Positions 7,711 to 28,967 are shown, counted from the stretch's first letter. The stretch is DNA of 64,000 nt from an uncultured bacterium (GCA_903870365.1 CAIQCQ010000034.1:2665-66664), one strand, 5' to 3'. Numbers and translations: made by a program. The notes: generated from the letters alone by a model not told the origin.

Positions 7711-8444
7711 GCCGGTACCAGCTTGCCAGCACACGTAGCACTCGCCCACAATCCAATTCCTCCCTCTCGGGCATATTTTTCTGTTGACCGAAATTCCGCT
7801 TGAAACTGATACGGTTTTTTATATGTGTACTCAAACCCATAGCCTTCTTGAATAATTTCTTCATCCACTAACACATCACCTAAATACACATACCGGAGCC
7901 AGCGACCATATTTATCAACATCATTTTGTGTTGGGTCTGTTTCTAGTCGCACAACGGTATCAGCTGGTAACATATGTTTGAGATATTCTGAGGCTTCTTT
8001 ACCAAAACACTGCACTGGTTTACGAGGATCAACTGTCTCCGGAGTATTCACCCCTATCAAACGGACCGTATGATCACCTCCAACATCACTATGGACGACA
8101 ACAGTATCGCCATCCACCACCCTGGTGACATAGTAACTATGCTCCGGCAATACCGTCTCCTGACTTTGTATGACCGCAGCACTTTGTTCACTCGTAAATG
8201 GTGTATGTGACGACGTATGTACTGCAACAATACTACAAATAAACACAAGGAGTGGGATCGCTATCATCAAAAAATATTTTTTATTCGAGAAATACCCCGT
8301 CAGCTTTGCTGCGGGGATTGGTATAACAGTATCGGCGGAGGCCGATTCTTCTTCAAACACAAAAGCCTGGTCCCGTCCCGCGGATACCTCGTCCCTTGTA
8401 GGGTGAGAATCAACGGGACGAGCTTTTTTATTTTGTCTCATCAT
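7704..8444 (-). CDS. thermonuclease (SNase / micrococcal-nuclease family), membrane-anchored
   Basis: VVDGDTVVVH...VRLIGVNTPE...YGRWLRYVY; the N-terminal 60 aa are encoded by Repeat-B, so the real start may be the Met at ~8265 (MIAIPLL). Confidence 0.75.
   Translation of the reverse strand: MMRQNKKARPVDSHPTRDEVSAGRDQAFVFEEESASADTVIPIPAAKLTGYFSNKKYFLMIAIPLLVFICSIVAVHTSSHTPFTSEQSAAVIQSQETVLPEHSYYVTRVVDGDTVVVHSDVGGDHTVRLIGVNTPETVDPRKPVQCFGKEASEYLKHMLPADTVVRLETDPTQNDVDKYGRWLRYVYLGDVLVDEEIIQEGYGFEYTYKKPYQFQAEFRSTEKYAREGGIGLWASATCAGKLVPAK
8272..8424 (-). repeat. Repeat-B copy 1
   Basis: See copy 2; it overlaps the annotated 5' end of the nuclease ORF. Confidence 0.8.
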
Positions 8445-8475
8445 AGCGTATAGTATAGCTTCTCAGAGCAGTTTT

Positions 8476-9060
8476 TTGCTGTGTACAACCACAATTATGA
8501 ACAAAAGTGACCAAGACATCATCACCGAATACTTGTCTGGCAATGAAATAGCGTTTAATGAGCTCATCCAGCGATATATGACCTCAGTGTACACTTTTAC
8601 CTATGGATTAACTCATTCTGTCCAAGATGCCGAAGACATCACTCAAGATACCTTTGTTAAAGCCTGGAAAAATATCAAAAAATACGACAAAAAATACACA
8701 TTTAAAACGTGGGTACTGACCATTGCTCGAAATACCACATATGACTTTTTTCGTAAGAAAAAAAACATTCCTTTTTCGGCTTTTGATAATACAGATGGAG
8801 ATAATGTTCTGACAGCTCAGCTTGCAGACGAGCAACCACTTGCTCTGGAAATCAGCGTACTGGCTGAAGACAAGGATATACTCGACACCGCCATCGAACA
8901 ATTACCTCCAGTCTACAAAGAAGTCATCTCCTTGCGATATGGTCAAGATTTGACGTTTGAAGAAATGAGTGTAGTTGTTAAACGCCCACTCAATACAGTC
9001 AAAAGCCAAGTTCGCCGAGGATTAATTGCACTCAAAGAAGTCCTTCGCGCACCAAAATAA
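8476..9060 (+). CDS. ECF-type RNA polymerase sigma factor (sigma-70 family)
   Basis: Region 2 (ITQDTFVKAWKNIKKYD) and region 4 HTH (LTFEEMSVVVKRPLNTVKSQVRRGL). Confidence 0.85.
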   Translation: MLCTTTIMNKSDQDIITEYLSGNEIAFNELIQRYMTSVYTFTYGLTHSVQDAEDITQDTFVKAWKNIKKYDKKYTFKTWVLTIARNTTYDFFRKKKNIPFSAFDNTDGDNVLTAQLADEQPLALEISVLAEDKDILDTAIEQLPPVYKEVISLRYGQDLTFEEMSVVVKRPLNTVKSQVRRGLIALKEVLRAPK

Positions 9061-9078
9061 GCATTATTCACGTAATAT

Positions 9079-9498
9079 TTGATACACTTTACACACATGA
9101 AACATACACTCTCAGACAACCTCTCAGTCACCCCTCGAGAAAGTCTCTATGCCACTATAGTAGCTCGTATTGATATGGAAAAAGTTCGACACGCACGACG
9201 TCAATTTGGACGGCTCGTTTCAGGTGCAATCGCTTCTTTTGTACTTTTTATTGGAGCAGTACAATACGCTACACTCCAATTTACTCAATCAGAATTTCCA
9301 CAATATCTTTCTCTCATACTATCTGAAAAAACAGACCTTTTTAACTATTGGCGAGAATTTCTTTATGCCCTGACTGAGTCTTTGCCACTCCTTAGTATCA
9401 CCATATTCTTGGGAGCATTTGGAGTCATGCTTTTCTTTATACAAAAAACATTGAAAAACTTTGGATCGGTATTACCACACGCCACACTTATCTCTTAA
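9079..9498 (+). CDS. putative anti-sigma factor / membrane protein
   Basis: 139 aa with two TM helices, immediately downstream of the ECF sigma gene. Confidence 0.35.
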   Translation: MIHFTHMKHTLSDNLSVTPRESLYATIVARIDMEKVRHARRQFGRLVSGAIASFVLFIGAVQYATLQFTQSEFPQYLSLILSEKTDLFNYWREFLYALTESLPLLSITIFLGAFGVMLFFIQKTLKNFGSVLPHATLIS

Positions 9499-9507
9499 TA
9501 TATTTTT

Positions 9508-10020
9508 ATGCAAGAACAAAACCACACACCATCACATATACGAAGTTTTTTTGAGTCACCATTAATACGTACGGTAATCTCAAAAATACTGATTGTGATT
9601 GTTGGCGTCATTATTGTCGCTTGTATATTTTTGGTTGGCGAAACAGTCGGTTATCACAAAGTTGAAACTTCATATCGTTTTGGCGAAAATTACAACCGTA
9701 TTTTTGAAGGCCAACAGGGTATGCACAATATATTTCTCATGCCTATAGATAATATGTTTTCTGGTACACATGGAGCGTTTGGTAAAATTGTCAAAATAAC
9801 ACTTCCTCAAGTTGTCATTGTCGGACAAGATGGATTAGAAAAAATTATTGTTCTCAATGATGATTCAATTATTAAAGAATTTCGTGGTGATGTCTCTTCA
9901 TCTAGTTTGAGTGTCGGAGACACGATTACTGTCCTCGGGTCTCCTGATGACACTGGGCAAATAACTGCAAAACTGATCCGCGTCGTTCCGAGTACTGCAA
10001 CATCAACTAACATCAAATAA
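9508..10020 (+). CDS. hypothetical membrane-anchored protein
   Basis: 170 aa with an N-terminal TM helix; in the same operon as the sigma/anti-sigma pair. Confidence 0.4.
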   Translation: MQEQNHTPSHIRSFFESPLIRTVISKILIVIVGVIIVACIFLVGETVGYHKVETSYRFGENYNRIFEGQQGMHNIFLMPIDNMFSGTHGAFGKIVKITLPQVVIVGQDGLEKIIVLNDDSIIKEFRGDVSSSSLSVGDTITVLGSPDDTGQITAKLIRVVPSTATSTNIK

Positions 10021-10047
10021 CACAACACACTAATATCACACATCACC

Positions 10048-11826
10048 ATGAAAAATATCTTTGATGCAGTAAAAAAATATGCTCTCGCTCACAAAATAAT
10101 CAGCACGATTGTTATCTTGGTGGTGATATACGGCGGATACAAAATATATGTGAGCGCTCACACCACCACAGGAGTGACTCGCTATGTCCTTGGTACCGTA
10201 CAAAAAGGCCTTGTTATTTCTAGTCTGTCAGAAAGTGGTCAAGTATCAACCACAAACCAGATTGATGTTGCATCAAAAGTTTCTGGGAATATTACGTGGG
10301 TTGGAGTCAAAGTTGGTGACACTGTCTATGCTGGCCAAGCACTTGCAAGTATTGATAATACAACAGCCAAACAAGCCGTAACTGATGCTGAAGCTTCTCT
10401 TGCCGGAGCCCAATTGCAATATCAACAAGATCAAGCATCCGCACCAATCAACTATCAAAATACACTCACTGCTTTAACAACCGCTCAAGACAACCTTGCT
10501 ACAGAATACAACAATACATTTAATGATCTTTCTAATACATATCTGGATCTCCCGACGGTGATCAATGGTGCACAAAATATTTTATACGGTTTTGATTTGA
10601 GTCCAAGTAAAACACAGGCCAATGCTGACGTATTGATCAATACATTTAACAATGATCTTCAGACGACCGTACGAACGTCGGCAACACAAGCAGAAAGTGA
10701 TTATACAACAGCTCGGTCTTCATATGACCCCGCTCTTGCCCAATATCAAATTACTCAAAGAAATTCTGCAACCAGTACCATCGAAACACTCTTGACGACA
10801 TCAATTCAAACGACTACAAATATTGCGCAAGCACTACAAAGTGAACTTAACTTCCTCGCTCTTGTCAGTGATGTGGCTACCCAAAACAATATTCATATAC
10901 CGACCACAATTACCACACTGCAAACAAATGCAAGAAATTATCTCACCACAACAAACAACGATCTCAGTCTCTTACTTTCAGAAAAGAAAGCCTTACAATC
11001 AGCAAAACAAACAATTACAACTGATCAACAAAACATCGTACTTCTCCAGGTTGGCAACCCAACTCAAGACAACCCCATCACGCTCCAAATTGAAAAAAAT
11101 AACTTGGCCAAACAACAACAAGATTTAGATAATCTCAAAACTACACTCGGATACTATACGATCACCGCTCCTTTTGCCGGCACCATATCTGCTGTGCCTG
11201 CAAAAGTTGGTCTCAATGCGGGAACCATTGCCACTGTGGTCACCAACCAACAAATTGCTCAACTTTCTGTCAACGAAGTAGACGCAGCAAAAATTGCTCT
11301 CGGAGACAAAGCGGTTATTACTTTTGATGCGTTGAGTGACTTGAGTATTACGGGAACTATTAATGAAATTGATCCTGTCGGTACCGTCAGTCAAGGTGTG
11401 GTGAGCTATATCGTCAAAATAACGTTTGATACCCAAGACCCACGTGTCAAACCAGGCATGACAGTCAACGCTTCGATCCAAACAGCAGCACATCCAGATG
11501 TACTGTACGTACCAAGCAGTGCAGTCAAAACAACTGCTGGTGCAAGTTATGTTCAAGCTTTTACTCCCCCACTCGTTGATACCAGTAATGGTGCCGGCAT
11601 GACATCAGCAACACCACCAGTACAAACACCAGTTACTGTTGGTATATCAAACAGCACCAGTGTTGAAATCCTTTCTGGAGTGACCGAAGGACAACAAATT
11701 GTCACACGAACTACGACTGGCACAACAGCCACAAAAACAACAACTACTCCAACTGCCACATCACTCCTTGGGGGTGGTGCCGGAGGACGTCCTGGAGCAA
11801 CTGGTGGGGTAAGAATTGGAGGATAA
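10048..11826 (+). CDS. efflux transporter periplasmic adaptor (HlyD/MacA family) with an extended Q/T/N-rich coiled coil and a Gly-rich tail
   Basis: N-terminal TM; biotinyl-lipoyl-like and beta-barrel segments (ITAPFAGTISAV...GTINEIDPVG); upstream of the MacB-type ABC pair. Confidence 0.7.
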   Translation: MKNIFDAVKKYALAHKIISTIVILVVIYGGYKIYVSAHTTTGVTRYVLGTVQKGLVISSLSESGQVSTTNQIDVASKVSGNITWVGVKVGDTVYAGQALASIDNTTAKQAVTDAEASLAGAQLQYQQDQASAPINYQNTLTALTTAQDNLATEYNNTFNDLSNTYLDLPTVINGAQNILYGFDLSPSKTQANADVLINTFNNDLQTTVRTSATQAESDYTTARSSYDPALAQYQITQRNSATSTIETLLTTSIQTTTNIAQALQSELNFLALVSDVATQNNIHIPTTITTLQTNARNYLTTTNNDLSLLLSEKKALQSAKQTITTDQQNIVLLQVGNPTQDNPITLQIEKNNLAKQQQDLDNLKTTLGYYTITAPFAGTISAVPAKVGLNAGTIATVVTNQQIAQLSVNEVDAAKIALGDKAVITFDALSDLSITGTINEIDPVGTVSQGVVSYIVKITFDTQDPRVKPGMTVNASIQTAAHPDVLYVPSSAVKTTAGASYVQAFTPPLVDTSNGAGMTSATPPVQTPVTVGISNSTSVEILSGVTEGQQIVTRTTTGTTATKTTTTPTATSLLGGGAGGRPGATGGVRIGG

Positions 11827-11928
11827 CGCAAGCCGAAATAAGAATAACGAATTAAGAATTACGAATAATTTTTCCATCGTTTTCTATCCATCGTATTTCA
11901 TAATTCATACTTCGTAATTCTACCCAAC

Positions 11929-12639
11929 ATGATTGAAATTAAAAATATCACAAAAACATACGGTACTGGTGATACAGCCTTCCAGGCATTAAAAGGTGTT
12001 TCTTTTACCATCGAAGACGGTGATTTTGTAGCCATCATGGGTCCATCTGGTTCTGGTAAATCGACCTTGATGCATATCCTTGGTTGTCTCGATACACCAA
12101 CCAGTGGAACATACCTACTCGACAAACACGATGTCTCTACATTTTCTGATGACGAACTGGCTGACATACGCAAAGATAAAATTGGTTTTGTGTTTCAATC
12201 GTTCAATCTTCTGCCTCGTACCACCGTGTTACGTAATGTCATGCTTCCACTCATTTACGCTGGTGTTGATGAAGAGACGCGAGAAAAACGCGCCAAAGAT
12301 GCACTCCTTGCTGCCGGCCTTGCCGAAACGCACTTTGAACACCGCTCAAATGAAATATCTGGTGGACAGATCCAACGTGTGGCAATTGCCCGAGCACTGG
12401 TCAATGATCCATCACTAATACTCGCCGATGAACCAACAGGAAATCTTGATACAAAAACGGGAGACATTGTTCTTGGCACATTTGAGCGTCTCAATCGTGA
12501 ACGTGGACGTACTATTATCCTCATCACTCATGAACCTGATGTAGCAGAACATGCACGTAGAATTATTACTATTCGTGATGGACTCATTGTCAGTGATAGT
12601 ACAGCGCATAAACGAATACATGCAAAAATAGAAAACTAA
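11929..12639 (+). CDS. ABC transporter ATP-binding protein (MacB/LolD type)
   Basis: Walker A GPSGSGKST, signature ISGGQIQRVAIARAL, Walker B ILADEPTGNLD. Confidence 0.9.
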   Translation: MIEIKNITKTYGTGDTAFQALKGVSFTIEDGDFVAIMGPSGSGKSTLMHILGCLDTPTSGTYLLDKHDVSTFSDDELADIRKDKIGFVFQSFNLLPRTTVLRNVMLPLIYAGVDEETREKRAKDALLAAGLAETHFEHRSNEISGGQIQRVAIARALVNDPSLILADEPTGNLDTKTGDIVLGTFERLNRERGRTIILITHEPDVAEHARRIITIRDGLIVSDSTAHKRIHAKIEN

Positions 12640-12644
12640 CATTT

Positions 12645-13877
12645 ATGAACATTACCGACATCTTACAGGAGACTTATACGGCACTATCAGCGAACAAGGT
12701 TCGTAGCAGTCTTACTGTGCTCGGTATTGTCATCGGTATCTCTTCGGTTATCGCTATGGTAGCTATTGGAAACGGTGCCTCTGCATCCATCTCTTCACGT
12801 ATTTCATCACTTGGATCAAACCTCATCATGATCTCCCCTGGTGCGCAACGTTCACAGGGTTTTGGAGTCAGTTCTGGCCGAGGCGCAGCTAAAAGTCTGA
12901 CCCAAGGAGACGCTGATGCTATATCCGCACAAGTTTCAAATGTTGTGGCAGTTGCTTCAGAAGTCTCTGGTCGATATCAAATTACGGCAAAAGGTACAAA
13001 TACAAATACCACCGTTGACGGGGTAACTTCCGCATATGCATCTATCCGTAACGTAGCAATAGATCAAGGCTCATTTATCTCTGACAATGATGACCAATCA
13101 GTCTCAAAAGTAGCTGTCATTGGACCAACCGTCGTAACTGATTTGTTTGGAACGACAGCCGTACCTTCTGATGCAATTGGTCAGACAATCCGCATCAATG
13201 GTATGGAGTTTACAGTCATTGGTGTCACAGTAGCAAAAGGTGGTACTGGTTTTGGAAATCAAGATGACATGATCTATATTCCCGCACAAAGTGCTATGCG
13301 TTACCTCAGTGGTAGTCAATATGTCACGTCGATTGATGTCCAAGCCTCTGATCCCAACGCCATGACTCAAGCACAGTCAGATATCACCAACCTCCTGCTC
13401 CAACGTCACAATATCAGTGACCCGACCCAAGCAGACTTTAGTGTTCTCAATCAAAATGATATTCTTGCTACCGCTTCAAGTGTAACAAATACTTTGACTT
13501 ACCTCCTGGCAGCAGTGGCTGGTATTTCGCTCGTCGTCGGTGGTATTGGTATCATGAACATGATGCTCACCACAGTGACTGAACGTACTCGAGAAATTGG
13601 TCTACGAAAAGCTATTGGTGCAAAAAAAGAAGATATCAGTAAACAATTTTTGATTGAAGCCACTGCTCTGACCCTCATTGGTGGTACCATCGGTATCAGC
13701 CTCGGGTGGCTCATTGCGTATGGAGTCAATGCACTGGGCATCATTAGCGCCACAGTGTCGCTGTCTTCAGTGTTATTGGCTTTTGGGGTGAGTGCGGTGA
13801 TTGGGATTACCTTTGGGTATTACCCAGCCCGCCGAGCTTCTGCTTTAAATCCCATTGAGGCTCTGAGGTATGAGTAA
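12645..13877 (+). CDS. ABC transporter permease (FtsX/MacB family)
   Basis: 410 aa; MacB periplasmic domain and C-terminal FtsX 4-TM region (LTTVTERTREIGLRKAIGA). Confidence 0.85.
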   Translation: MNITDILQETYTALSANKVRSSLTVLGIVIGISSVIAMVAIGNGASASISSRISSLGSNLIMISPGAQRSQGFGVSSGRGAAKSLTQGDADAISAQVSNVVAVASEVSGRYQITAKGTNTNTTVDGVTSAYASIRNVAIDQGSFISDNDDQSVSKVAVIGPTVVTDLFGTTAVPSDAIGQTIRINGMEFTVIGVTVAKGGTGFGNQDDMIYIPAQSAMRYLSGSQYVTSIDVQASDPNAMTQAQSDITNLLLQRHNISDPTQADFSVLNQNDILATASSVTNTLTYLLAAVAGISLVVGGIGIMNMMLTTVTERTREIGLRKAIGAKKEDISKQFLIEATALTLIGGTIGISLGWLIAYGVNALGIISATVSLSSVLLAFGVSAVIGITFGYYPARRASALNPIEALRYE

Positions 13878-14147
13878 TGCTTTGGTCTTTTTGTCCGATT
13901 TCATCTTCCGACTTTGTTTTCTTACGAGCAAAGCGAGTTAGAAACACAAGAAGTACCCTTGTGGTGAAATTTTAAAAATGCTCGTCACCGTACGACAGGT
14001 ACGGCTTCTCACATTTTTAAATTTTCCCATTATGAATACATAATGAGTAAGTGTTCCCTTATAAGCGAACTCGAACAAAAATCCTCAAAGTGTGGTTAAC
14101 CTTTAGAAATTAGAAATTTTATTTAAAAAAATAATTTAATTACACAT

Positions 14148-14552
14148 ATGAATAAAACAACTGGCATCATATTAGGTTTGGTTCTCATAATTCTCTCTTT
14201 CTACGGTGGTATGAAATACGATCAGAGTAAGGTCGCTTCCACACAAACAGCTCGCACAGGTCAATTTGCTGGACGTGCTGGTGGTGCACGTGGTGGAGTT
14301 TTTGGTGGTGGTGCCATGGGTCAAATTCTTTCCAAAGACGCTCAGAGTATTACCATTGCCCTCATGAGCACATCATCTACTGTCTCCACAGGTTCTGCTA
14401 TTGTCTACGTATCTGCCAGTACCACCATCGCTAAAACAACTACCATACCATTATCTGCTTTGAATATTGGTGACACTGTTATTGTTGCAGGATCAAAGGA
14501 TGCGAGTGGGGCTATCAGTGCAACCTCCATCCAAATTCGCCCTTTACGTTAG
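14148..14552 (+). CDS. hypothetical membrane-anchored Gly-rich protein
   Basis: 134 aa; signal/TM then GRAGGARGGVFGGGAMGQ. Confidence 0.4.
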   Translation: MNKTTGIILGLVLIILSFYGGMKYDQSKVASTQTARTGQFAGRAGGARGGVFGGGAMGQILSKDAQSITIALMSTSSTVSTGSAIVYVSASTTIAKTTTIPLSALNIGDTVIVAGSKDASGAISATSIQIRPLR

Positions 14553-14741
14553 TAAGATAAACAACAGAACTTCCAAATCTGGCGCATTTCGTTGTCAGAC
14601 TTCAAAAAATATTCCTCACCGTACGTCTAGTACGGCTCGAAACATTTTTATCGTCTTCCTAGAACTGCATCCAGATTTGAAAGTTGAGCTTAACCTAACC
14701 TCTAGTTTTGATACAATCATGCAAAATGCTATGATTTTGTA

Positions 14742-15515: not shown

Positions 15516-15522
15516 CAATCAC

Positions 15523-16077: not shown

Positions 16078-16088
16078 TACCCTATATA

Positions 16089-16667: not shown

Positions 16668-16676
16668 ATGTATATA

Positions 16677-18353: not shown

Positions 18354-18508
18354 ACTTTCATAATTTGATTGAGATCGCGTATAAGGGCACACTTACTCAT
18401 TATGTATTCATAATGGGAAATTTTCGGAAGATTCGTAGACGTATTAGACATACGGCGGAGAATATTTTTTAGAATTTAGACGATGAGATCGGTCAAATTT
18501 GGAAGTTT
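18354..18508. repeat. Repeat-C copy 3 (divergent, with an insertion)
   Basis: Shares CTTTCATAATTT...CGATGAGATCGGTCAAATTTGGAAGTT with 2223-2342 and 38776-38895. Confidence 0.6.
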
Positions 18509-19850: not shown

Positions 19851-19856
19851 ATAAAC

Positions 19857-19881
19857 AAAAAACCGCCGAAGCGGTTTTTTA
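19857..19881. terminator. bidirectional rho-independent terminator
   Basis: AAAAAACCGC-cgaa-GCGGTTTTTT between convergent genes. Confidence 0.7.
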
Positions 19882-19920
19882 TTTATCAATAGGACATGTA
19901 TCCTACAGAAAAAATTACAA

Positions 19921-20178: not shown

Positions 20179-20295
20179 AATATTTGTCGGACTTTCACAA
20201 AGTCCCTCTTAATTCTAATTATTATTAACTGTCCCACTACTATACCATAGGCTCTCCCTAGGGGGAAATACCTTGTCCACTGTACAGAATCACTC

Positions 20296-20388
20296 GGATT
20301 GTTTTTAAAAGAGCACGCATAAAACTTTGCTAAGTTTTTGCTCAGTCTCGCGCCGCCGCGCTTGCGAAGCCTCTTTTAAAAACAATCC
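20296..20388. repeat. 18-bp perfect inverted repeat (GGATTGTTTTTAAAAGAG / CTCTTTTAAAAACAATCC) around a 57-nt loop
   Basis: Read directly from the sequence; intergenic. Confidence 0.8.
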
Positions 20389-20425
20389 TCATTCCAGCTA
20401 AATAAAACAAAAAATACGAGTGATT

Positions 20426-21556: not shown

Positions 21557-21583
21557 TGTGTATAGTATACAGGATTACAAAGA

Positions 21584-21997
21584 CTATTTTAATCTTTCAA
21601 TTATCGTCTGTTTAATTTTTTGTACGAGTACTTCTGAAATTTTAAAATCTGGGTTTGTTAGATAATTCTTGCCCCACCGATCATCCACAAAAGTGACGTT
21701 ATCAAATTCTATTGGTTTTGAATATCTTGGTATAATATGACCATGAAGATGATGCGTTATGTTACCCAAAAAAGCATAATTTAACATATCAGCTCCGAAT
21801 ATATCTATTAAATTCCCTTCAAGTTCACGTAAAATCTCAAATACTTCTATTTGTTCATCAGGGGTAGCGTCGGGTAAATCAAAAGCATCTTTCCTTTTAC
21901 ACCACACGTAGCATCGTCCAAGATAACTTTGATTCTCATGTAGGTACGTACTCCAATATACATATTCTTTTATTTTAAAATTCTGATATGGATCCAT
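21584..21997 (-). CDS. HIT family protein (histidine triad)
   Basis: CYVWCK (CxxC) and THHLHGHIIPRY, cf. HIT HxHxHxx. Confidence 0.65.
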   Translation of the reverse strand: MDPYQNFKIKEYVYWSTYLHENQSYLGRCYVWCKRKDAFDLPDATPDEQIEVFEILRELEGNLIDIFGADMLNYAFLGNITHHLHGHIIPRYSKPIEFDNVTFVDDRWGKNYLTNPDFKISEVLVQKIKQTIIERLK

Positions 21998-22506
21998 TAT
22001 TTTTGATATTTATCCAACAACCACGTAGACGTATATTTTTTATACTTTTTTCTTACCACACCAGGCATATTACCGTATGCTCCAATCACTTTTCTACACG
22101 AGCCTGTCCCACAACTACAAGCCATACGCCAATACGGATGATCCTCTGTCATCTCATAGTCCCAGGTTATTTCTTCACCTAGCAGTATATTCCGCATGGC
22201 CACAATTTGAAATAAATTTTGTATGCCACAGTTTGGTTCACATGAATGATTGATCAGTCGAGCTATGCCAGTAGAGTCCCGCCATTTTTTCTCTTCAAAT
22301 TGAATACAGTGATTGTATAAATCTTCATTCCATTTGGTCGAACGAGAACTGTATACCCGGCCATCAAAAGCCGCAATAACCTCCCCTTTCTTGATCATAT
22401 CAATAGCAAATATCCCCTTGCCATGGTGCGTAGTCTTACGTATTTCTACTTTTGTATTATCCATATAAACAAGTGTAGCATACCGAATATCTAACAAAAT
22501 TGACAA
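21997..22506 (-). CDS. SET domain protein (putative protein-lysine methyltransferase)
   Basis: RLINHSCEPNC signature; Y.EL; post-SET CSCGTGSC. Confidence 0.8.
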   Translation of the reverse strand: MSILLDIRYATLVYMDNTKVEIRKTTHHGKGIFAIDMIKKGEVIAAFDGRVYSSRSTKWNEDLYNHCIQFEEKKWRDSTGIARLINHSCEPNCGIQNLFQIVAMRNILLGEEITWDYEMTEDHPYWRMACSCGTGSCRKVIGAYGNMPGVVRKKYKKYTSTWLLDKYQK

Positions 22507-22531
22507 CTATCAACAAAAAAGTGAGCAGACA

Positions 22532-22813
22532 TTATGACATCTGCCCACTCACAACCTCTCTGAGAATCCGTTGAAACTCTTCAAATGAAATCTCGCCAAA
22601 AGTATAACATTCATCGCCTTCTTCATCGTGACATACACAATCCGGATCACAATCACAGTCAGTCTTCCAACGTATATACTGTCCTTCTGGAGTCAGCAAT
22701 ACATGGGGACCCCAGTGTTCCGGCAAAATACACTCTCCCATGTAGTCATCATCTCTGTGACCAATGATATCCTCTCTGCGCGGTGGAATCGTCAAGCACA
22801 TTCTCATACACAC
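22532..22813 (-). CDS. hypothetical Cys-rich small protein
   Basis: 93 aa (CDCDPDCVCHDEEGDEC). Confidence 0.3.
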   Translation of the reverse strand: MCMRMCLTIPPRREDIIGHRDDDYMGECILPEHWGPHVLLTPEGQYIRWKTDCDCDPDCVCHDEEGDECYTFGEISFEEFQRILREVVSGQMS

Positions 22814-23054
22814 CTCCTTCCCATAAAATACGGTCTTTTGTATAAAAAGTAAACTGTCAAATCTCCACCTTTATCTTTGGCCATTTTTCTAACCACTTCT
22901 TTTGTGTCATTCGCTCTCTTACTCTCTCAATCCCGTCTGGAAACTGTGGGCTTGGTCTGACGATCATACCCACAAGATCATCAATTCCATATGGAGCAAC
23001 AAATCGCAAACTTCCATTTTCAAGTCGGACACCAACTGCTGTTGCGGTTTCTGG

Positions 23055-23441
23055 CTAATGAGCAATAGCATCCTGAGTTGATGTATACGGAAGTATACCA
23101 TTCCATATATGAGCATAAAATTCATTTACCACTTCCCATTCAATACCAGTTTCCTTTTTTAATTTTTCTGACAATTCATCATCTGCTTTTTCATCATTAC
23201 CATCTGGATCAAAATAAACCAAATCAACATCACTTCCTCTATGCAGATTATTTGTGTACCCAGAGATATGGTTCCATACCTTATTCCGTACAAATCCCGC
23301 ACCAATCAACCAATCTTTTAACTGTAAACTTTCTGCGGTACGTAAAATATCCATCATCCATTTATCTTGTTCTATTACATTGAGAATGTCTTGTTCGATC
23401 ATAATTCCAATAATTTCTTTCGTATCTCTTTCCTCAACCAT
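23055..23441 (-). CDS. nucleotidyltransferase-fold protein; an in-frame TAG is followed by 68 more sense codons (possible pseudogene or readthrough)
   Basis: GAGFVRNKVW...GSDVDLVYFD NTase motif; the same frame continues PETATAVGVRLENGSL... down to ~22852. Confidence 0.5.
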   Translation of the reverse strand: MVEERDTKEIIGIMIEQDILNVIEQDKWMMDILRTAESLQLKDWLIGAGFVRNKVWNHISGYTNNLHRGSDVDLVYFDPDGNDEKADDELSEKLKKETGIEWEVVNEFYAHIWNGILPYTSTQDAIAH

Positions 23442-24325
23442 AGTTTATCTGTTACCCCAACATCACCATCAAAACTAATAGTAATAATCTTTGATAATAA
23501 CTCTTTCACCTTTTTACTTTCCGTATACATATAATTTTTCTTTTCAGAAATAGACGGTATACTCAAAAACCAATCCGGGTGCCCAAATTTTTCTAGTGCA
23601 GCTTGAGCTTCCACCTTATGTTTATCCAGAAATGTATTCGCACTCCACAGCTCCAACTGCCCCATAACAACAGGGAAAGGAACTGTTTCCAGGTTTAGTG
23701 TTTTAGTATCGCTCGTTATCGCATGACCTATATCTGTATATATACTTTGTTCAACCTCTTCAAAATATTGCTCGGTCCAATTTAGCGGCAAATCTATATA
23801 TTTTTTAAGTTCTTCAAAAGCAGTAACATCCCTATCTGTAGTAACTGAAGCTCCAAAATTAAGAGTGTTTGAAAGGATGGCAATAGTAAGAAGATTCGCA
23901 CTCAGTTTTGATACCTTATCTGCAAAACCTCTCTTTTTATATTCTTCCCAAATCAAAGTGGCACAAGCGCCAACAAGTTCCACATGAGCATGTTCACTCA
24001 ACTTTTCCTTCCAAAAATCTTGAAAACCAAAACGATGATCGTACACTTCTACAACATGTTCCATTTGTATAAATTTTGAAATATAAGTCAGTTCAGATAC
24101 ATCAACAATTACAATATCACTTTCAATATCTGTCGGCTGTGTTACATAGTTTATATTCCATGAGCGAATAGTAGATGTGATACTACTATTAAACACACCT
24201 GGTAACACAATCTCATTCTTTTTATTCTCTAGAGTAAGCAACTCAGAATATGCAACAGCGCACGCCAAAACATCAATATCTGTAAATGCTTCTCCTGCTG
24301 TAATAACGGTAGTTTTCATAATCAA
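23399..24325 (-). CDS. DHH-family phosphoesterase homolog (family II pyrophosphatase PpaC-like) with degenerate catalytic motifs
   Basis: Collinear similarity to PpaC, but HQNPDTD is GEAFTDID, DHN is DVS, DHH is DHR. Confidence 0.55.
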   Translation of the reverse strand: MIMKTTVITAGEAFTDIDVLACAVAYSELLTLENKKNEIVLPGVFNSSITSTIRSWNINYVTQPTDIESDIVIVDVSELTYISKFIQMEHVVEVYDHRFGFQDFWKEKLSEHAHVELVGACATLIWEEYKKRGFADKVSKLSANLLTIAILSNTLNFGASVTTDRDVTAFEELKKYIDLPLNWTEQYFEEVEQSIYTDIGHAITSDTKTLNLETVPFPVVMGQLELWSANTFLDKHKVEAQAALEKFGHPDWFLSIPSISEKKNYMYTESKKVKELLSKIITISFDGDVGVTDKLWLRKEIRKKLLEL

Positions 24326-24331
24326 TATTTT

Positions 24332-24802
24332 CTATACACCTCGCTTTCCTTTCGCCAGCATTACACACACTTTCGCAATTCGCACGCCGCGCTTTTCTAG
24401 ATCTCTACCTGCATCTATCCAGTCGACCAGATCCCGTCGTTCGTCTGCAGTCAGACTACTCCACATAGCCTTTGACCGTGGGCTGGCATTGAGCGCTGTA
24501 TACAAACTCATCGGTACCACCGCATAACAGCATGGGCGTCGTTTGCCAGAGGCAAGCATCGAACTCACTCGGTCAACCCGACGCTTTCGTGTCTCTGGTT
24601 GTTTGGCTGATTCTATCCATCGTATAAAATCTCGATGCGCAATCGGAGTCAAATCTTTCCACAGTGTTTGTACGTGCGAACCACCCAGAGCCAGGGCTTT
24701 ACGGAGGTCTGTTGGCACCTCCCTCGATTCCACACCCTCTCTACTCACAGTTTGATTCGTCTTTTTCATATGTCTGATTATACTGCTATTATCTAAAAGC
24801 AA
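24332..24802 (-). CDS. YdeI/OmpD-associated family protein (DUF1801-like)
   Basis: Tandem-repeat architecture; real start is probably MKKTNQ at 24769. Confidence 0.45.
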   Translation of the reverse strand: MLLDNSSIIRHMKKTNQTVSREGVESREVPTDLRKALALGGSHVQTLWKDLTPIAHRDFIRWIESAKQPETRKRRVDRVSSMLASGKRRPCCYAVVPMSLYTALNASPRSKAMWSSLTADERRDLVDWIDAGRDLEKRGVRIAKVCVMLAKGKRGV

Positions 24803-25071
24803 AAGCCATTAGTACAATAGTCAAGGCATTGAGAACAACCAATACACCAACAAATGTTGTTTTTGAAGTCACAATTCTAGGATTCATTAAAAGATATACC
24901 GTGTAGATGATCGCCACAATCGCCGCACCAAGAAAATTTCCTTGTATCATATATGTATAGTTAAGTTAGTTGAGTAAAATGATCCTTTGATAAGTATACT
25001 CCTTTTAAAGGTCTATGCTGCTATGTAGATATGTAAGGATAGCACTTACAAACTATCCGAAACACGGACCG

Positions 25072-25545
25072 CTACGCAGATGTCTTTAACTCATCCCTCA
25101 TTTTCATCCATATTCTACCGATGTGATTTAACCCACTTCCATCTTCCCCATCATCCCAAAACCCATCACCTGGAGGTGGTGTAACGATATGTTTAACAAT
25201 CATAACATCTCCCGAGTTTACAAGTGCCGTACGGACATCTTCATGTTGTTCAACCTTGAGCCTCATCATCTTCTCCATTATTTCTAGTTTATATGATTCT
25301 TGTTTAAATTCTGGAATTTGTTCATGTTTATATTTTGAAGATACCTCCCAAGCCTTAACAGCACTGCGCGCGTTTCGTATTTCTTCAATAATCTGCGTAT
25401 CAGTATACCGTGCACACTGATATGCATGTTCAACCGTAGGATACACCAAACCACCTATCTCGATAGCATGAGCAGTATATGGAGAAAAATAAATATAAAA
25501 AATTTCCAGAGGAAGTGTATCTTTCATCGCGTATAAGTATATCAA
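25072..25545 (-). CDS. NADAR domain protein (YbiA-like N-glycosidase)
   Basis: FYSPYTAHAIEIGGLVYPTVEHAYQ...GLNHIGRIWMKMR. Confidence 0.65.
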   Translation of the reverse strand: MIYLYAMKDTLPLEIFYIYFSPYTAHAIEIGGLVYPTVEHAYQCARYTDTQIIEEIRNARSAVKAWEVSSKYKHEQIPEFKQESYKLEIMEKMMRLKVEQHEDVRTALVNSGDVMIVKHIVTPPPGDGFWDDGEDGSGLNHIGRIWMKMRDELKTSA

Positions 25546-25638
25546 ACTTTACGAACTACAGCTCTGGTACAAAGCTGGACTCACACAACACAAAACCCAC
25601 TATCTCTCGACAGAAAGTCCTGTGGTAAATAGTGGGTC

Positions 25639-26112
25639 CTAAAATGGCAGAAACGGAAGTTGATCCATGCCAGTAGCATGTATCACCACACACACTGCAG
25701 TTTCTCCAAGAACTTTTGAAACAAATTCTTTGGGGTGATGTTTTCCCACAAGAATCAAGTACTCCGGATGCTTCTCGCTCTGCCACACTCCTTCTTCGAA
25801 ATGTCCCGTGAGACAGTCCACTTCTTTAGTAGACCAATTTCCACCCTTTCGGAAAAGTACTGTTGAGTTGATACTTTTGGTCTTTTTCTCAAACTGCCTC
25901 TTGTAAAACTCACTGGCTTCCTTGCACTTTATCTTCTTGCAAGGATCGCAGTAATAGCCGGGGATGCCTGGAGGCATATCTCCTGACAACTGATTGGATG
26001 CATTTTCTGCACCACAGAGCCCACAGCGAACCCCAAAGCCATCGAACTTTGAACCAAAACTCATACTTCCAATTCCAGACATTCTAAAATCAATTTTTCC
26101 GACTTCCATCAT
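25639..26112 (-). CDS. hypothetical Cys-rich protein
   Basis: 157-aa ORF, no recognised motif. Confidence 0.35.
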   Translation of the reverse strand: MMEVGKIDFRMSGIGSMSFGSKFDGFGVRCGLCGAENASNQLSGDMPPGIPGYYCDPCKKIKCKEASEFYKRQFEKKTKSINSTVLFRKGGNWSTKEVDCLTGHFEEGVWQSEKHPEYLILVGKHHPKEFVSKVLGETAVCVVIHATGMDQLPFLPF

Positions 26113-26187
26113 GCCTCACCTCTATATAGATACAAACATATGTATAAATAAAAATCAAGCGCTGGCCGTCTGGGAGAGTTGCCTAAA

Positions 26188-26400
26188 TTTTATTTTGACT
26201 AGCATTGAATGAAGTGGAAAAGTACTCTTTTCCACTTCTGAGATGTGACGTCAAAACAAACGACAGTTTGTTTTGCGAATAACCCACTGCGTGAGCGTGG
26301 GGATGAAACAAAAGTTTCCTGAAGCTTTGCTTCAGGATGAATTGGCTTCGCCAATTCATCTCAGGAATACCCCGGGCATGAGCCCGCGGGTCGTTTATTT
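26188..26400. repeat. Repeat-E copy A (213 bp, multi-hairpin)
   Basis: About 95% identical to the reverse complement of 50301-50514. Confidence 0.85.
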
Positions 26401-26901
26401 AAAAGTATTATCGTCAGCTGATGGACCATAGATAGACGGCACGGGTATATTGTTTAGACGCATATACACAGTCAATTGCCCCCTGTGATGCACCCAATGT
26501 CTGAGCTGAGAAGCAACACTTTCATCTTTTGCAGATTTCATCAATTCCTTATCACCCATTTTTAAATAAAACATTTTTGTGGTCAATTCTTCGTCCGAAA
26601 TCTTCTTAAGAGAGTTCTTTGCTAATTCAATATTGTCATCAAAATATTTTAATAAATCAGCATTGGTACTCAATGTATACTTTTTCCAGGTCGCAAAATC
26701 AATTTCACCTTTTTCTATTGTAATACTAATCCATTTTGGAACCTCTGCTACGATAGTAGACAAATAACCCATCTGCATAGATTTCTCATGAGGTTTGTAA
26801 TCGTATAGACTTTCTGGAATTCTCTCTAAACATTTCCTGGTAGCCGCCACCTCCTCTTCCAATTCTTTTAAAAACATGTGAGCGATTATATTTTTATTCA
26901 T
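26395..26901 (-). CDS. DinB/YfiT-like metal-dependent hydrolase superfamily protein
   Basis: HWVHHRGQ motif; about 168 aa. Confidence 0.6.
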   Translation of the reverse strand: MNKNIIAHMFLKELEEEVAATRKCLERIPESLYDYKPHEKSMQMGYLSTIVAEVPKWISITIEKGEIDFATWKKYTLSTNADLLKYFDDNIELAKNSLKKISDEELTTKMFYLKMGDKELMKSAKDESVASQLRHWVHHRGQLTVYMRLNNIPVPSIYGPSADDNTFK

Positions 26902-26987
26902 AAATATATGATAATAATTTTATTTAAATAATAACTATGTGTCCTGCACGAAATCCAAACTTTTTAAATATCCCTGATGATCAAAAA

Positions 26988-27224
26988 TTAATCGTTTTCT
27001 TTTTTGTCCCATTCACTCTGAAACCACGCAAACCACTTTTTTCGGTCTTCTTCTGTATGATTTGGATTCAACATCATTTCTCGCATTGTTGCATGTACCT
27101 CATCTGTTGAACTAGAAACATGCTTACTACATTGACTTGCAACATTCACAGGATCTGCTCCGATAAACTTCATCTCACACCCTCCTTCGTTATTCATAAT
27201 TTCTTTACATGTAAATGTTTTCAT
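26988..27224 (-). CDS. DUF1059-like small metal-binding protein
   Basis: MKTFTCKEI...GGCEMKF...H pattern. Confidence 0.4.
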   Translation of the reverse strand: MKTFTCKEIMNNEGGCEMKFIGADPVNVASQCSKHVSSSTDEVHATMREMMLNPNHTEEDRKKWFAWFQSEWDKKEND

Positions 27225-27286
27225 AAATATACTTTGTTATTTATAAATTTATAATTCGACACAACCTGAGCATCACTCGACTTGGC

Positions 27287-27355
27287 TGGGAGACTAGGAA
27301 TCGAACCTAAATTAAAGGCTTCAAAGGCCTCTGTCCTGCCGTTAGACGATCTCCC
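27287..27355 (-). tRNA. tRNA-Gln(TTG)
   Basis: Hand-folded cloverleaf; anticodon loop CTTTGAA; T-loop TTCGATT. Confidence 0.65.
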
Positions 27356-27468
27356 AATGTTTTCTACTGTATCAGATTTTTTATTATTTTTCTATATAGC
27401 ACTATAGAAAAATGCCCTTGCAGAGTCCACTGGTGGTGAACATTCTGCAAGGGCATGACGACTCAAAA

Positions 27469-27684
27469 CTATACATCTTGTAAGGTCATCGGAAAAATTT
27501 GTTTAATAGCAGAAGTCACAGGGTTCTCATCTCCCTCATCACACTTTTGAAAAGCGAGTGTAACAACCTCCATCCTTTTTTCAGCCGATACTTCTATTCC
27601 TTTCAAATGTACTTCTAGTTCCCCAAACACGAGCCTTCTTACTTCTCGTGCATACGCTTCAGTATCATTTAGTGTCGGTGGCAC
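27469..27684 (-). CDS. hypothetical protein
   Basis: 71-aa ORF downstream of dnaX (the usual ybaB position, but the sequence is not YbaB-like). Confidence 0.3.
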   Translation of the reverse strand: MPPTLNDTEAYAREVRRLVFGELEVHLKGIEVSAEKRMEVVTLAFQKCDEGDENPVTSAIKQIFPMTLQDV

Positions 27685-27733
27685 AAAGCTCTCCTTCCCT
27701 CTCTTTTATACCACACCACAAAAAATCAGTCTA

Positions 27734-28759
27734 CTATTTATCTCCTACTATCTCCATCAACGCCAATTCGAGTGGCAGAGACGCAATATATGCTCGAGTA
27801 GTGGCTGTGTACGCATCAAGCAGTTTAACGATCGTATCAGAGCCGACCGTTACATTTGTATCGAGAGCGATTTTTGAGATAAATGCAAAATCATCTTCAG
27901 ACATATCCCCTTTGACCAAATCCTCGGATCCAAAGCGAACAAGCAGCACCGCTCGCATTTTTTGCAACAATAATTTTAATAACACCGACATGTCGAGGTT
28001 GGCTTGTGACGCCTCACGCACAGCATTCAGTCCTTTATGCAAATCCTTTTCAGTAATAGCAGAGACGATAGCGTTGACCAGTTCCCCTTTTGGCGCACCC
28101 GTGACGGTCAAGACGTCTTCATCTGATATTTTTTTCGCCACTGCGGCTGACAACACTTTTTGCAACGTCCCCAATGTATCCCGAAATGATCCATCGCCAA
28201 TGAGGGCGACCAAATCTGCTGACACATCAGACAGCGTATACCCTTCTTTCTTGGCCACACTCAAGACTACTTTTTTTAAAGTCTCTTGGTTTGGTTTACG
28301 AAAAGTATGAACTTCACAACGAGAAAGTATGGTCTCGGGGATCTTGTGTGTCTCGGTCGTAGCCAGGATAAAGATGACATGTTCTGGTGGCTCTTCGAGG
28401 GTCTTCAAAAACGCATTGCTCGCCGACTTGGACAACATATGGACTTCGTCCAGTATGTATACTTTATATTTTGAATCAAATGGCAGTGTGTTGACTGATT
28501 CATTGAGCTCACGAATATCGTCCACCGATGTTTTTGACGCAGCATCTATCTCATAAATGTCGTTTGGTGAGGTGCCCAGCTCTCGAGCCAGGATACGAGC
28601 GATCGAGGTCTTACCGATGCCCCGAGAACCAGCAAACAAATAGGCGTGCCCGACAGTGCCGTTTGTGATCTGAGCTTGTAGTGTTTTAACAATGGCATCT
28701 TGGCCAACAACATCAGTAAATGTATGTGGACGATATTTTCGATAGAGAACTTCTGACAT
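27734..28759 (-). CDS. dnaX: DNA polymerase III subunit gamma/tau (short form)
   Basis: Walker A GSRGIGKTS; LDEVHMLS...EEPPEHVIFILATTE. Confidence 0.85.
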   Translation of the reverse strand: MSEVLYRKYRPHTFTDVVGQDAIVKTLQAQITNGTVGHAYLFAGSRGIGKTSIARILARELGTSPNDIYEIDAASKTSVDDIRELNESVNTLPFDSKYKVYILDEVHMLSKSASNAFLKTLEEPPEHVIFILATTETHKIPETILSRCEVHTFRKPNQETLKKVVLSVAKKEGYTLSDVSADLVALIGDGSFRDTLGTLQKVLSAAVAKKISDEDVLTVTGAPKGELVNAIVSAITEKDLHKGLNAVREASQANLDMSVLLKLLLQKMRAVLLVRFGSEDLVKGDMSEDDFAFISKIALDTNVTVGSDTIVKLLDAYTATTRAYIASLPLELALMEIVGDK

Positions 28760-28814
28760 GAGGATAGTTTAGCATACGAATATCCGAATTGGGAATTTCC
28801 GAATAGTTTTGAAT

Positions 28815-28967
28815 AAAAGCAGCCCTGCCGTCCATCCTCGCAGTAGAACTGACGAGGTATTAGCGGCAGGAACCAGGGCTCTTATATTCGTAGAAGAATC
28901 GGCCTCCGCCGATACTGTTATACCAATCCTCGCTGCAGAGCAGACGAGGTATTTCTCGAATAAAAAA
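28815..28967 (+). repeat. Repeat-B copy 2 (structured ~150-nt element)
   Basis: Reverse-complement match to 8272-8424, with an identical 40-nt core and covarying stems. Confidence 0.8.

Follow-up and report, generated by a model that had tools for sequence, protein, structure and literature searches.

Rickettsia palindromic elements (RPEs) are interspersed repeats of about 150 bp, palindromic or otherwise structured, which do not encode a transposase. They can form in-frame, stop-free inserts in protein-coding genes, extending the protein (PMC10969869). Classical MITEs (Correia, ERIC, RUP, BOX) and SPRITE elements are, in turn, short multi-copy sequences that fold strongly and lie mostly between genes, in one orientation or the other, and some of them are occasionally intragenic or terminator-like (PMC10969869). 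HUH Y1 enzymes mobilise REP/REPIN sequences and elements with ends of the IS200/IS605 type (miniature derivatives, “PATEs”) in the form of single strands that have folded. The element analysed here, Repeat-B, occurs twice in the window (the whole 64-kb stretch of DNA under analysis) and belongs to a hitherto uncatalogued family of highly structured non-coding repeats of roughly 150-160 nt, or 145-171 nt in the wider range, in genomes of ultra-small bacteria of the CPR/Patescibacteria type, the host having been taken as Patescibacteria from the names of homologous proteins. As in MITE-, REP- and RPE-like repeats in the broad sense, its copies are dispersed, lie in unrelated contexts, have no coding capacity and are shorter than ~300 bp, and the best reading, by analogy, is that Repeat-B would be similar in behaviour to RPEs and REP sequences. 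With RPEs it has in common the size, the structured and interspersed character, the lack of an encoded transposase and, in a minority of copies, the in-frame insertion into ORFs (nuclease, ComEC and GGACT genes); this is an analogy only, with a different host phylum and no presumed relationship in sequence. Unlike RPEs, it always has three hairpins in the same arrangement and ends in AATAA, a profile search with its peptide brought up no wider set of proteins, and its in-gene share is 3 of ~27 copies, whereas nearly half of RPEs are reported in genomic ORFs. As for MITEs, their defining marks, terminal inverted repeats and variable target-site duplications, were not seen in Repeat-B, whose ends are direct AATAA repeats.

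The two copies of the window (Table 1) are inverted relative to each other and ~80% identical: a repeat search gave two gap-free arms of 161 nt (8272-8432 and 28812-28972) that are 78% complementary, and a MAFFT alignment had no internal indels, both in agreement with the two inverted copies of ~150 nt with compensatory changes described in an earlier note on this DNA. The identical core that it reported is present, with a length of 38 nt rather than 40 (37 letters had been printed), and so are, in both copies, the hairpin ATCGGC-CTCC-GCCGAT and the common tail TATTTCTCGAATAAAAAA. The core and tail patterns each occur exactly twice in the window, against ~0.01-0.03 expected, and each copy contains two similar hairpins followed by ACGRGGTAT (4 matches in the window versus 0.45 expected). 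On either strand the two copies fold much better than shuffled sequences, with z-scores of -4.7/-4.9 on the strand read in the earlier note and -3.2/-5.0 on the other, and the covariance-model scores are 142.9 and 139.6 bits for copy 1 and 170.5 and 159.3 bits for copy 2. Copy 2 is intergenic and antisense to dnaX, whose start is 52 nt away, an arrangement also present in a second assembly (L051; both this locus and L006 are identical to the window).

Table 1. Positions of the Repeat-B copies, their parts and the adjoining features in the window
Feature	Position	Strand	Description
Repeat-B copy 1, whole element with its two AATAAAAAA ends	8277..8432 (as inverted copy 8276-8432)	-	inside 5' end of SNase nuclease ORF, in frame
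Copy 1, 5' domain	8358..8432	-	domain folds, family alignment; P1 AAUAAAAAAGC / GCUUUUGUG with 3'-side bulge GACCAGG; P2 UCGUCCCG / CGGGACGG
Copy 1, tip hairpin h1	8387-8408	-	
Copy 1, identical block	8315-8352	-	AGAAGAATCGGCCTCCGCCGATACTGTTATACCAATCC, 38 nt
Copy 1, central hairpin	8331..8346	-	AUCGGC-CUCC-GCCGAU, within identical block
Copy 1, h2	8295..8316	-	CCCCGCAGC-AAA-GCUG-A-CGGGG
Copy 1, tail after h2	8277-8294	-	UAUUUCUCGAAUAAAAAA
Repeat-B copy 2, full element	28811-28968	+	intergenic
Copy 2, 5' domain	28812..28887	+	folds, family alignment; P1, bulge GAACCAG, P2 CUGCCG / CGGCAG
Copy 2, tip hairpin h1	28836-28857	+	CCUCGCAGU-AGA-ACUG-A-CGAGG
Copy 2, identical block	28892-28929	+	AGAAGAATCGGCCTCCGCCGATACTGTTATACCAATCC, 38 nt
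Copy 2, central hairpin	28898..28913	+	within identical block
Copy 2, h2	28928..28949	+	CCUCGCUGC-AGA-GCAG-A-CGAGG
Copy 2, tail	28950-28967	+	
SNase-family (thermonuclease) ORF	7704..8444	-	246 aa, carries copy 1; Pfam SNase at residues 126-234
Nuclease, ancestral N-terminal part	8433-8444	-	MMRQ
Nuclease, ancestral remainder	7704-8285	-	NKKYFLMIAIPLL..., membrane anchor and SNase domain
dnaX (DNA polymerase III gamma/tau)	27734..28759	-	Pfam matches; start at 28759, on one side of copy 2
Terminator-like hairpin	29017-28987	-	on the other side of copy 2

Repeat-B consists of three hairpins. The long 5' one (P1-P2-h1) carries a conserved ACCAGG bulge and is followed by a central one and by a 3' one (h2) that resembles h1; GGUAUU comes after both h1 and h2, and AAUAA(A) stands at both ends of the element. 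The two similar hairpins have the same orientation and share the pattern CCYCG-NNNN-loop-NNNN-(A)-CGRGG-UAUU. As had been claimed, two compensatory pairs (C-G to U-A and A-U to U-A) distinguish the window copies in the 9-bp stem with its bulged A. The central hairpin reads AUCGGC-CNCC-GCCGAU; its invariance in the alignment of 22 sequences is due to the search pattern, and more distant relatives show compensatory variants of the stem (AUCGCC/GGCGAU, GUCGCC/GGCGAC) while keeping the CNCC loop. Regarding the nested stems of the 5' half, the helices are conserved, but the pairing drawn for copy 1 (CUCGUCCC..GGGACGAG) has to be replaced, given that the family conserves UCGUCCCG paired with the downstream CGGGACGG.

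Further copies were sought in metagenomes with an exact pattern and also by peptide search, which brought in about 26 beyond the two in the window. The pattern scan returned 39 loci, ~26 of them with full-length similarity and unrelated flanks. L021 and L043 have the element and a tRNA flank in common, but their left flanks are unrelated, starting exactly at the element edge. There are several copies per contig (for example, the two on the 155-kb contig Ga0209542_10000182, L018 and L048) in many unrelated genomic contexts, mostly intergenic, and with unit lengths of 134-171 nt. The earlier note had proposed aligning homologues for covariation and searching Rfam for riboswitch or ribozyme families. 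In the covariance-model alignment of 22 copies, 91.1% of the cells are paired, 27 of the 44 pairs show double changes (126 cells), and the covariation score reaches 0.376, versus 0.125 in shuffles (0/500 attaining the observed level) and 0.04-0.08 when the pairing partners are slid, so that the conserved base-paired structure is borne out by real covariation across these 22 family members. Helices 1-3, which make up the 5' domain, have 88-89% of their cells paired and two-sided changes in 22 of 29 pairs; for helix 5 (h2) the values are 92% and 5 of 9 pairs. In Rfam 15, on the other hand, the window copies match no family at the gathering threshold nor even at E<=10 with relaxed filters, and no match falls on the element in 20 related loci.

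Are these, then, independent small structured RNA genes (a trans-acting sRNA or an RNP component, with few copies per genome), the in-gene copies being accidents or annotation artefacts? The very strong covariation and the conservation of unpaired motifs would favour this, as would the U-G pair in P2, conserved in 15 of the 22 copies on the strand of the earlier note, the U-rich run after h2 in subfamily 1 (UAUUUCU / UAUUUUU), the variant L020, which ends in a GC hairpin plus UUUUU of the classical terminator type, and the proximity of some copies to tRNA and rRNA genes. However, the flanks are unconserved, and no promoter-like sequence was found at a fixed distance. Neither strand is favoured: the summed MFE values are -1117 vs -1146 kcal/mol, and the wobble pairs are balanced (G-U 41 vs A-C 37). 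Moreover, truncated and tandem copies occur (L015, L016, L023), three real coding sequences are interrupted exactly in frame and a syntenic relative has no element, all of which makes RNA genes an unlikely explanation. Three observations also count against a mobile repeat: across subfamilies, the fold and several unpaired nucleotides (ACCAGG, GGUAUU, CNCC loop) are deeply conserved, more so than is usual in selfish repeats, which would also suit a functional RNA; the conserved P2 U-G pair hints at a strand-specific molecule; and the terminator-hairpin end of L020 resembles that of an sRNA gene.

In the 5' domain itself, a long GC-rich hairpin lies between an A-tract and a U-tract (AAAUAAAACAG...CUGUUUUUUUU in L021; GUGUUUUUUUGG in L037/L031), which raises the alternative of a structural module exploited by the host, such as a bidirectional intrinsic terminator or an mRNA stabiliser, spread by duplication and comparable in function to SPRITE/REP. 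The equivalence of both strands by fold and the mostly intergenic location agree with it, and SPRITE elements with Rho-independent-terminator-like sequences are on record (PMC10969869). Nonetheless, copy 2 is directly upstream of dnaX and just past an existing terminator-like hairpin, copy 1 and the L037 copy are sense at the very start of genes, which termination there would silence, and termination needs neither the conserved central hairpin nor h2. Such a module, which is distinctly improbable, also concerns function after dispersal and leaves the spread unexplained.

The units of the three in-gene copies measure 147 nt (nuclease), 171 nt (ComEC) and 150 nt (GGACT enzyme), all multiples of 3, and in each case removal of the element and one AATAA gives back the normal protein, with an N-terminus or Pfam domain start as in homologues. 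In the nuclease, whose homologues measure 185-197 aa and span no more than 79% of the query, a segment of ~49 residues is absent from the six closest homologues, matching the AATAA-to-AATAA distance of copy 1 (147 nt, i.e., 49 codons). The 9 nt AATAAAAAA lie on both sides of this copy, one of them being needed to restore the NKK of the homologues. Once 147 nt between these two repeats are taken out, the N-terminus reads MMRQNKKYFLMIAIPLL... and lines up with those of homologues, for example MVFNGKKYLFAILGL. This alignment makes the ATG at 8444/8441 the ancestral start, with the element interrupting the coding sequence in frame, and not the Met at ~8265 that had been put forward as the true start. 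Copy 1 would lengthen the cytoplasmic N-terminal tail of this membrane-anchored SNase nuclease by 49 residues, or else force the use of the internal Met at 8265. In the other two genes, the reconstructions are ...VLYGAFLLLGITLG for ComEC (protein P0121, where the element is antisense and the match to Pfam DUF4131 picks up again at profile position 30 past it) and MANKLFIYGTL for the GGACT enzyme (L037), whose domain begins at residue 55, directly after the element.

The earlier note took copy 1 for a 5' leader, which in a cis-acting form (riboswitch, ribozyme or attenuator) would control the downstream nuclease. Copy 1 does run in the direction of the nuclease gene, immediately ahead of an alternative start codon, and h2 plus UAUUUCU resembles a weak terminator, but 26 copies show no association with any gene class or orientation, their neighbouring genes being unrelated. 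The orientation with respect to these genes is random, with the upstream gene on the same strand in 11 cases and on the opposite one in 12, and the downstream gene in 12 and 8, respectively. The element is antisense inside comEC, no coding gene was found downstream of copy 2 on its own strand, and orthologous nucleases have no element upstream: in the syntenic locus of a relative (L008; sigma factor, SNase, msrA, msrB, xseA), the 110-nt spacer between the sigma-factor and SNase genes is devoid of it. Together with the lack of an Rfam riboswitch or ribozyme match, this leaves very little credence for the leader.

Still less can be given to a translated peptide module, that is, a genuine N-terminal extension or domain common to proteins. 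A single reading frame is open through both window copies and stop codons are depleted family-wide (31/132 frames open vs 10.7 +/- 3.2 in shuffles), but most substitutions between copies alter the amino acid (58% peptide identity vs ~80% DNA identity in the window), member lengths vary by 1-2 nt and, in ComEC, the opposite strand is read. A profile search with the element peptide against 1.84 billion protein representatives returned nothing but the protein of the window itself and a single spurious ORF, hence no protein family. Since unit lengths differ by non-multiples of 3 and no protein family was found, the element is not coding. Its region is no conserved protein segment, and the likeness among the ORF peptides merely reflects the repeat, as the earlier note said.

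Repeat-B is thus probably a non-autonomous mobile DNA element integrating at A-rich AATAA(A) sites. Copies would arise by insertion, either by transposition or by site-specific integration, with the enzyme supplied in trans; this would recognise the conserved bases of the CCYCG/CGRGG-UAUU hairpins together with the central hairpin and AATAA at the ends, the DNA at that stage probably being single-stranded and folded. Insertions into genes would mostly be lost, only those in frame, stop-free and near N-termini or in tolerant loops surviving. Pfam scans of 30 window ORFs (0-29 kb) contained no transposase, the element ends have no inverted complementarity that would make terminal inverted repeats, and no site-variable target-site duplication was found, nothing being duplicated outside the AATAA(A) flanks; mobility is therefore deduced from the distribution and not from a mechanism. 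AATAA(A) flanks every copy (AGTAA in subfamily 3), which fits a fixed target or core sequence or else intrinsic ends, and the flanking “direct repeat” may be partly intrinsic to the element, because the 5' AAUAAA is also in helix P1.

Regarding the possible enzyme partners of such an element, a resemblance to IS200/IS605 and REP sequences is a lead rather than a demonstrated relationship. Like them, Repeat-B has no terminal inverted repeats, carries two similar, same-orientation imperfect hairpins with bulged bases near its ends, and has a short specific sequence at the left flank and the right end (AATAAAAGCAG... and ...CTCGAATAAAAAA, the same AATAA in direct orientation). Counted from the AATAA, the hairpin feet stand ~17 nt in on the left and ~9 nt in on the right; the IS608 values are 19 and 10 nt (PMC3201880). 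No tnpA, RAYT or tnpB gene turned up among the 30 window ORFs scanned, and no full-length element was observed. In IS608, however, the left cleavage site is outside the element, whereas the left AAUAAA of Repeat-B is inside P1, and neither the central hairpin nor the long P1-P2 helix has an IS608 counterpart. The tetranucleotides immediately 5' of the hairpin feet, where guides would lie, are CCAU/CAAU, for which convincing pairing with AATAA was not found. Each of the two hairpins is followed on its 3' side by UAUU, the complement of the AAUA at either end, but by comparison with IS608 (PMC3201880) this motif stands on the wrong side. The covariation of the stems fits recognition of structure rather than of sequence, as in REP and IS200/IS605.

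The two copies of Repeat-B in the window, compared on the strand on which the element was originally read (the R strand, i.e., minus for copy 1 and plus for copy 2), share an identical core that the earlier note had put at 40 nt and that aligns over 38 nt. The hairpin ATCGGC-CTCC-GCCGAT lies inside this block as described, the tail TATTTCTCGAATAAAAAA is identical in both copies, and their 9-bp stems with a bulged A are distinguished by exactly the two compensatory pairs first reported. The core and tail patterns occur at these two sites only in the window (0.01-0.03 expected), and the similarity between the peptides of nearby ORFs is indeed a by-product of the repeat, five ORFs being its shadows. 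An internal repeat that had gone unreported consists, in each copy, of two similar hairpins with ACGRGGTAT after each; it is also detected by BLAST, and the hairpin pattern has four matches in the window (0.45 expected). Both copies, on both strands, fold far above shuffles (z -3.2 to -5.0). A TR/VR pair of a diversity-generating retroelement was rejected, since the aligned copies show differences of every type, and not at adenines alone. Copy 2 lies directly after a strong minus-strand terminator-like hairpin, and SRP RNA, considered for this position upstream of dnaX, was rejected on three grounds: no SRP match in Rfam, a multi-copy family and the wrong orientation.

Coordinates of Repeat-B and of other features in the window and in related loci (L-numbers denote retrieved metagenome or genome loci)
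Feature	Position	Strand	Remarks
Arms of the Repeat-B pair	8272-8432 / 28812-28972	minus / plus	161 nt, 78% complementary, ungapped; repeat search of the window
Identical core	8315-8352 / 28892-28929	minus / plus	
Repeat-B copy 2	28811-28968	plus	52 nt upstream of dnaX start, antisense to dnaX
ORFs that are repeat shadows	8170-8406, 8217-8453, 28769-29071, 28809-29081, 28860-29069		
ORF-free stretch	28978-29760		~0.8 kb, from copy 2/dnaX to dus
Terminator-like hairpins	29521-29503, 29306-29292, 29017-28987	minus	in ORF-free stretch
Promoter-like site	29244-29217	minus	TTGACA-16-TATTCT, in ORF-free stretch
Folded segment	29497-29700	both	plus -87.4 kcal/mol, minus -60.4 kcal/mol
116-aa ORF	31091-31441	minus	between dus and ftsQ-like genes
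Intergenic repeats (examples)	26177-26400 / 50301-50524		
	2251-2340, 18418-18507, 38806-38895		
	6385-6474 / 35270-35359		
D1 family (90 nt)	L011:15507-15631		ComEC contig, 79-83% identity
tRNA-Leu	56115-56201		
Serine recombinase	56180-57820	minus	546 aa, Pfam Resolvase/Recombinase; abuts tRNA-Leu
LOOT RNA	59197-59316		90 bits
Recombinase region	56115-63000		
Short variants	L016:560-790	minus	two in tandem, ~103 nt each
Variant central hairpin	L021:2171-2045		GUCGCC/GGCGAC
Same element at two loci	L021:1598-1843, L043:6954-7199		~10 nt from tRNA gene 3' end
23S rRNA match	L015:330-4363		4034 nt vs 2925-position model; 5S after it

A six-frame peptide query matched a ComEC protein (P0121, NCBI assembly GCA_039740855.1), inside which lies a third copy, antisense, in frame and with 24 extra nt in the h2 loop. 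Scanning metagenome contigs with GAATCGGCCNCCGCCGATAC, a 20-mer invariant across these three copies, gave 39 loci, about 26 of them full-length relatives and the others coincidences in GC-rich coding sequence. The genome collection, scanned with ACTGTTATACCAATCC-N14-24-GGTAT, returned five matches, all of them chance and with flanks lacking similarity; since the later alignment showed this stretch to vary within the family, that negative is uninformative on distribution. Viral, phage and plasmid collections held no copies. Family copies are mostly intergenic, several adjoin tRNA genes (Rfam search of related loci), and two (L018 and L048) lie on one contig of 155 kb. Their orientation relative to the flanking genes is random (11 upstream genes on the same strand and 12 on the opposite one; for downstream genes, 12 and 8), their flanks are unrelated, and conservation ends at AATAA on either side. 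Where the same element stands near a tRNA gene in L021 and L043, the left flanks are unrelated and diverge exactly at GAAATAAAAC, so that the edge of the element coincides with a rearrangement or insertion boundary. A copy reduced to the 3' domain is found ~130 nt after the 5S rRNA gene of L015, a locus whose 23S match exceeds its model, implying ~1.1 kb of inserted sequence, the 16S gene being unlinked, ~8 kb downstream.

Per-sequence folds gave one plan for every family member. The 5' domain is a long irregular hairpin, comprising helix P1 (5' AAUAAAAGC paired with GCUCUUAUU), a 3'-strand bulge of 6-7 nt, (G)AACCAG(G), helix P2 beyond the bulge and the h1 hairpin as its tip; there follow a U-rich linker, the central hairpin AUCGGC-CNCC-GCCGAU and a 3' domain with h2 and, in some subfamilies, an extra closing helix, then UAUU...AAUAA(A). 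A third subfamily ends in AGUAAAGAAC...CCAGUAA. Eight close copies served to build a covariance model, which recovered all members; 22 were aligned. In this alignment 91.1% of cells are paired (34-50% when partners are slid), 27 of the 44 pairs change on both sides (126 cells), and the covariation score is 0.376, reached by none of 500 shuffles (0.125 ± 0.010; 0.04-0.08 with partners slid); fitting the alignment to the model favours structure, but the margin is wide, and unconstrained folding of single sequences yields the same helices. With the raw MAFFT alignment as input, RNAalifold shows the three tip hairpins only, P1 and P2 being detected by per-sequence folds and realignment to the covariance model. 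The central hairpin is invariant in the 22 copies because the search pattern required it; compensatory versions that keep the CNCC loop occur in two relatives at a greater distance, unit B of L016 (AUCGCC/GGCGAU) and the L021 variant. In each of the tandem short variants of L016, a P1-P2 hairpin with an ACCAGG bulge and the central hairpin are accompanied by a simple 3' hairpin; in the central hairpin of the second unit, a G-C pair has become C-G by compensatory change.

Three copies interrupt real genes: the window SNase (sense), the ComEC gene of L011 (antisense) and a GGACT-family gene of L037 (sense). Excision of the element plus one AATAA removes 147, 171 and 150 nt, in that order and each time a multiple of three, and the reconstructed proteins read MMRQNKKYFLMIAIPLL..., ...RFVLYGAFLLLGITLGLG... 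and MANKLFIYGTL.... In ComEC, the Pfam domain DUF4131 resumes after the insert (profile position 30, residue 108), and the GGACT domain of L037 starts at residue 55, directly after the element. Nuclease homologues, 185-197 aa long, span no more than 79% of the 246-aa ORF, and by their source names the organism belongs to the CPR/Patescibacteria; against the six closest, the window protein has an insert of ~49 residues right after MMRQ, and similarity resumes at NKKYF-LMIAIPLL, opposite, e.g., NGKKYLF-AILGLFL. The 246-aa annotation fuses gene and repeat into a chimera. The reconstruction restores the Lys-rich segment that homologues carry ahead of the membrane anchor, and therefore at least one AATAA(AAAA) is target-derived. 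Copy 1 either adds 49 residues to the cytoplasmic tail of this membrane-anchored nuclease or moves initiation to the Met at 8265.

The element had been proposed as a 5' leader of the nuclease gene, with riboswitch or ribozyme families in mind. Its random gene orientation and unrelated flanks contradict this, as does its absence from a syntenic relative (L008: HlyD-like gene, two small ORFs, sigma factor and divergent SNase-msrA-msrB-xseA), where the gap between sigma factor and nuclease is only 110 nt. Nor does any Rfam 15 family match Repeat-B, be it at gathering thresholds in the whole window, at E ≤ 10 in the surroundings of either copy, or in 20 related loci. A peptide module is likewise contradicted: unit lengths (134-171 nt across the family) differ by one or two nucleotides, and the encoded-peptide profile, searched against 1.84 billion representative proteins, matched nothing besides the protein of the window itself and a single spurious ORF, and hence the sequence is no coding module. 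There is nonetheless a depletion of stop codons (31 of 132 frames open vs 10.7 ± 3.2 in mononucleotide shuffles), and the GC-rich stems may be a partial cause.

Taken together, the evidence agrees with a structured repeat, non-autonomous and either mobile or dispersed, that integrates at AATAA-like sites and whose in-gene copies would persist only if in frame. The main rival is a family of independent structured small-RNA genes, which is favoured by the depth of conservation and by a variant ending in a terminator (L020), but against which speak genes interrupted in frame, truncated copies, flanks without conservation and the strand symmetry of the element. The R strand has 41 G-U pairs and 37 A-C oppositions (G-U on the other strand), and the summed MFE is -1117 kcal/mol on the R strand and -1146 on the other; these measures give no clear winner, the one asymmetry being a single P2 U-G pair kept on the R strand in 15 of 22 copies. 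Taken as a whole, neither strand has the advantage, as is common among DNA repeats but out of the ordinary for a dedicated RNA. The proteins at the window's edges extended its sequence by only ~1.7 kb, and exact-protein look-ups for the window gave identical strains only, and hence no empty-site polymorphism was found.

As for how a mobile repeat might move, a tentative and rather doubtful proposal is that Repeat-B is the substrate of an unrecognised CPR transposition or integration system, its fold being an ssDNA or RNA intermediate read by the enzyme and AATAA the exchanged core; the two similar subterminal hairpins and the central CNCC-loop hairpin would be what is recognised. If true, this would be a new class of non-autonomous transposon and not a relative of known MITEs. 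In an exotic variant, matched AAU-AAA codons flanking in-gene copies would allow skipping of the structured insert, either in the RNA or during translation. The in-frame, in-gene behaviour is analogous to that of Rickettsia palindromic elements (RPE; reviewed in PMC10969869), and shows that RPE-style in-frame "selfish" inserts exist beyond Rickettsia. There is also a likeness to REP sequences and to the ends of IS200/IS605, which HUH enzymes recognise in folded single-stranded form: two like-oriented subterminal hairpins without inverted repeats, one short sequence shared by left flank and right end, and spacings of ~17 and ~9 nt, against 19 and 10 nt in IS608 (PMC3201880). Unlike in IS608, the left AAUAAA belongs to helix P1; no convincing guide/cleavage-site pairing was found in the element, nor any transposase in 30 window ORFs compared with Pfam, and the resemblance is only a lead.

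Short structured interspersed repeats are well known as a kind. Full-text literature searches on MITEs, repetitive elements and RNA motifs in CPR/Patescibacteria/Parcubacteria turned up no such repeats, and the Repeat-B family appears undescribed, as do its architecture and host range, within genomes whose mobile and repetitive DNA is itself poorly described. The family covariance model corrects gene calls (the 246-aa nuclease, a 573-aa ComEC and several spurious ORFs, which contain or consist of repeat), and the element is a marker of rearrangement breakpoints. Its unusually deep structure conservation offers a good way to find the mobilising enzyme or, if the small-RNA explanation is right, points to a new structured RNA.

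The lineage is rich in small interspersed repeats besides Repeat-B, the window holding at least 17 direct and 22 inverted intergenic repeat families, with D1 also present on the ComEC contig. In the ORF-free stretch, which gave no Rfam match at E ≤ 10, the three terminator-like hairpins and the promoter-like site suggest up to three tandem small transcription units on the minus strand. The 116-aa ORF is presumably of the four-helix-bundle "23S rRNA intervening sequence protein" type. Lastly, the serine recombinase is followed by ORFs without Pfam matches and a LOOT RNA, and the whole region has the look of an element that integrated at a tRNA gene.
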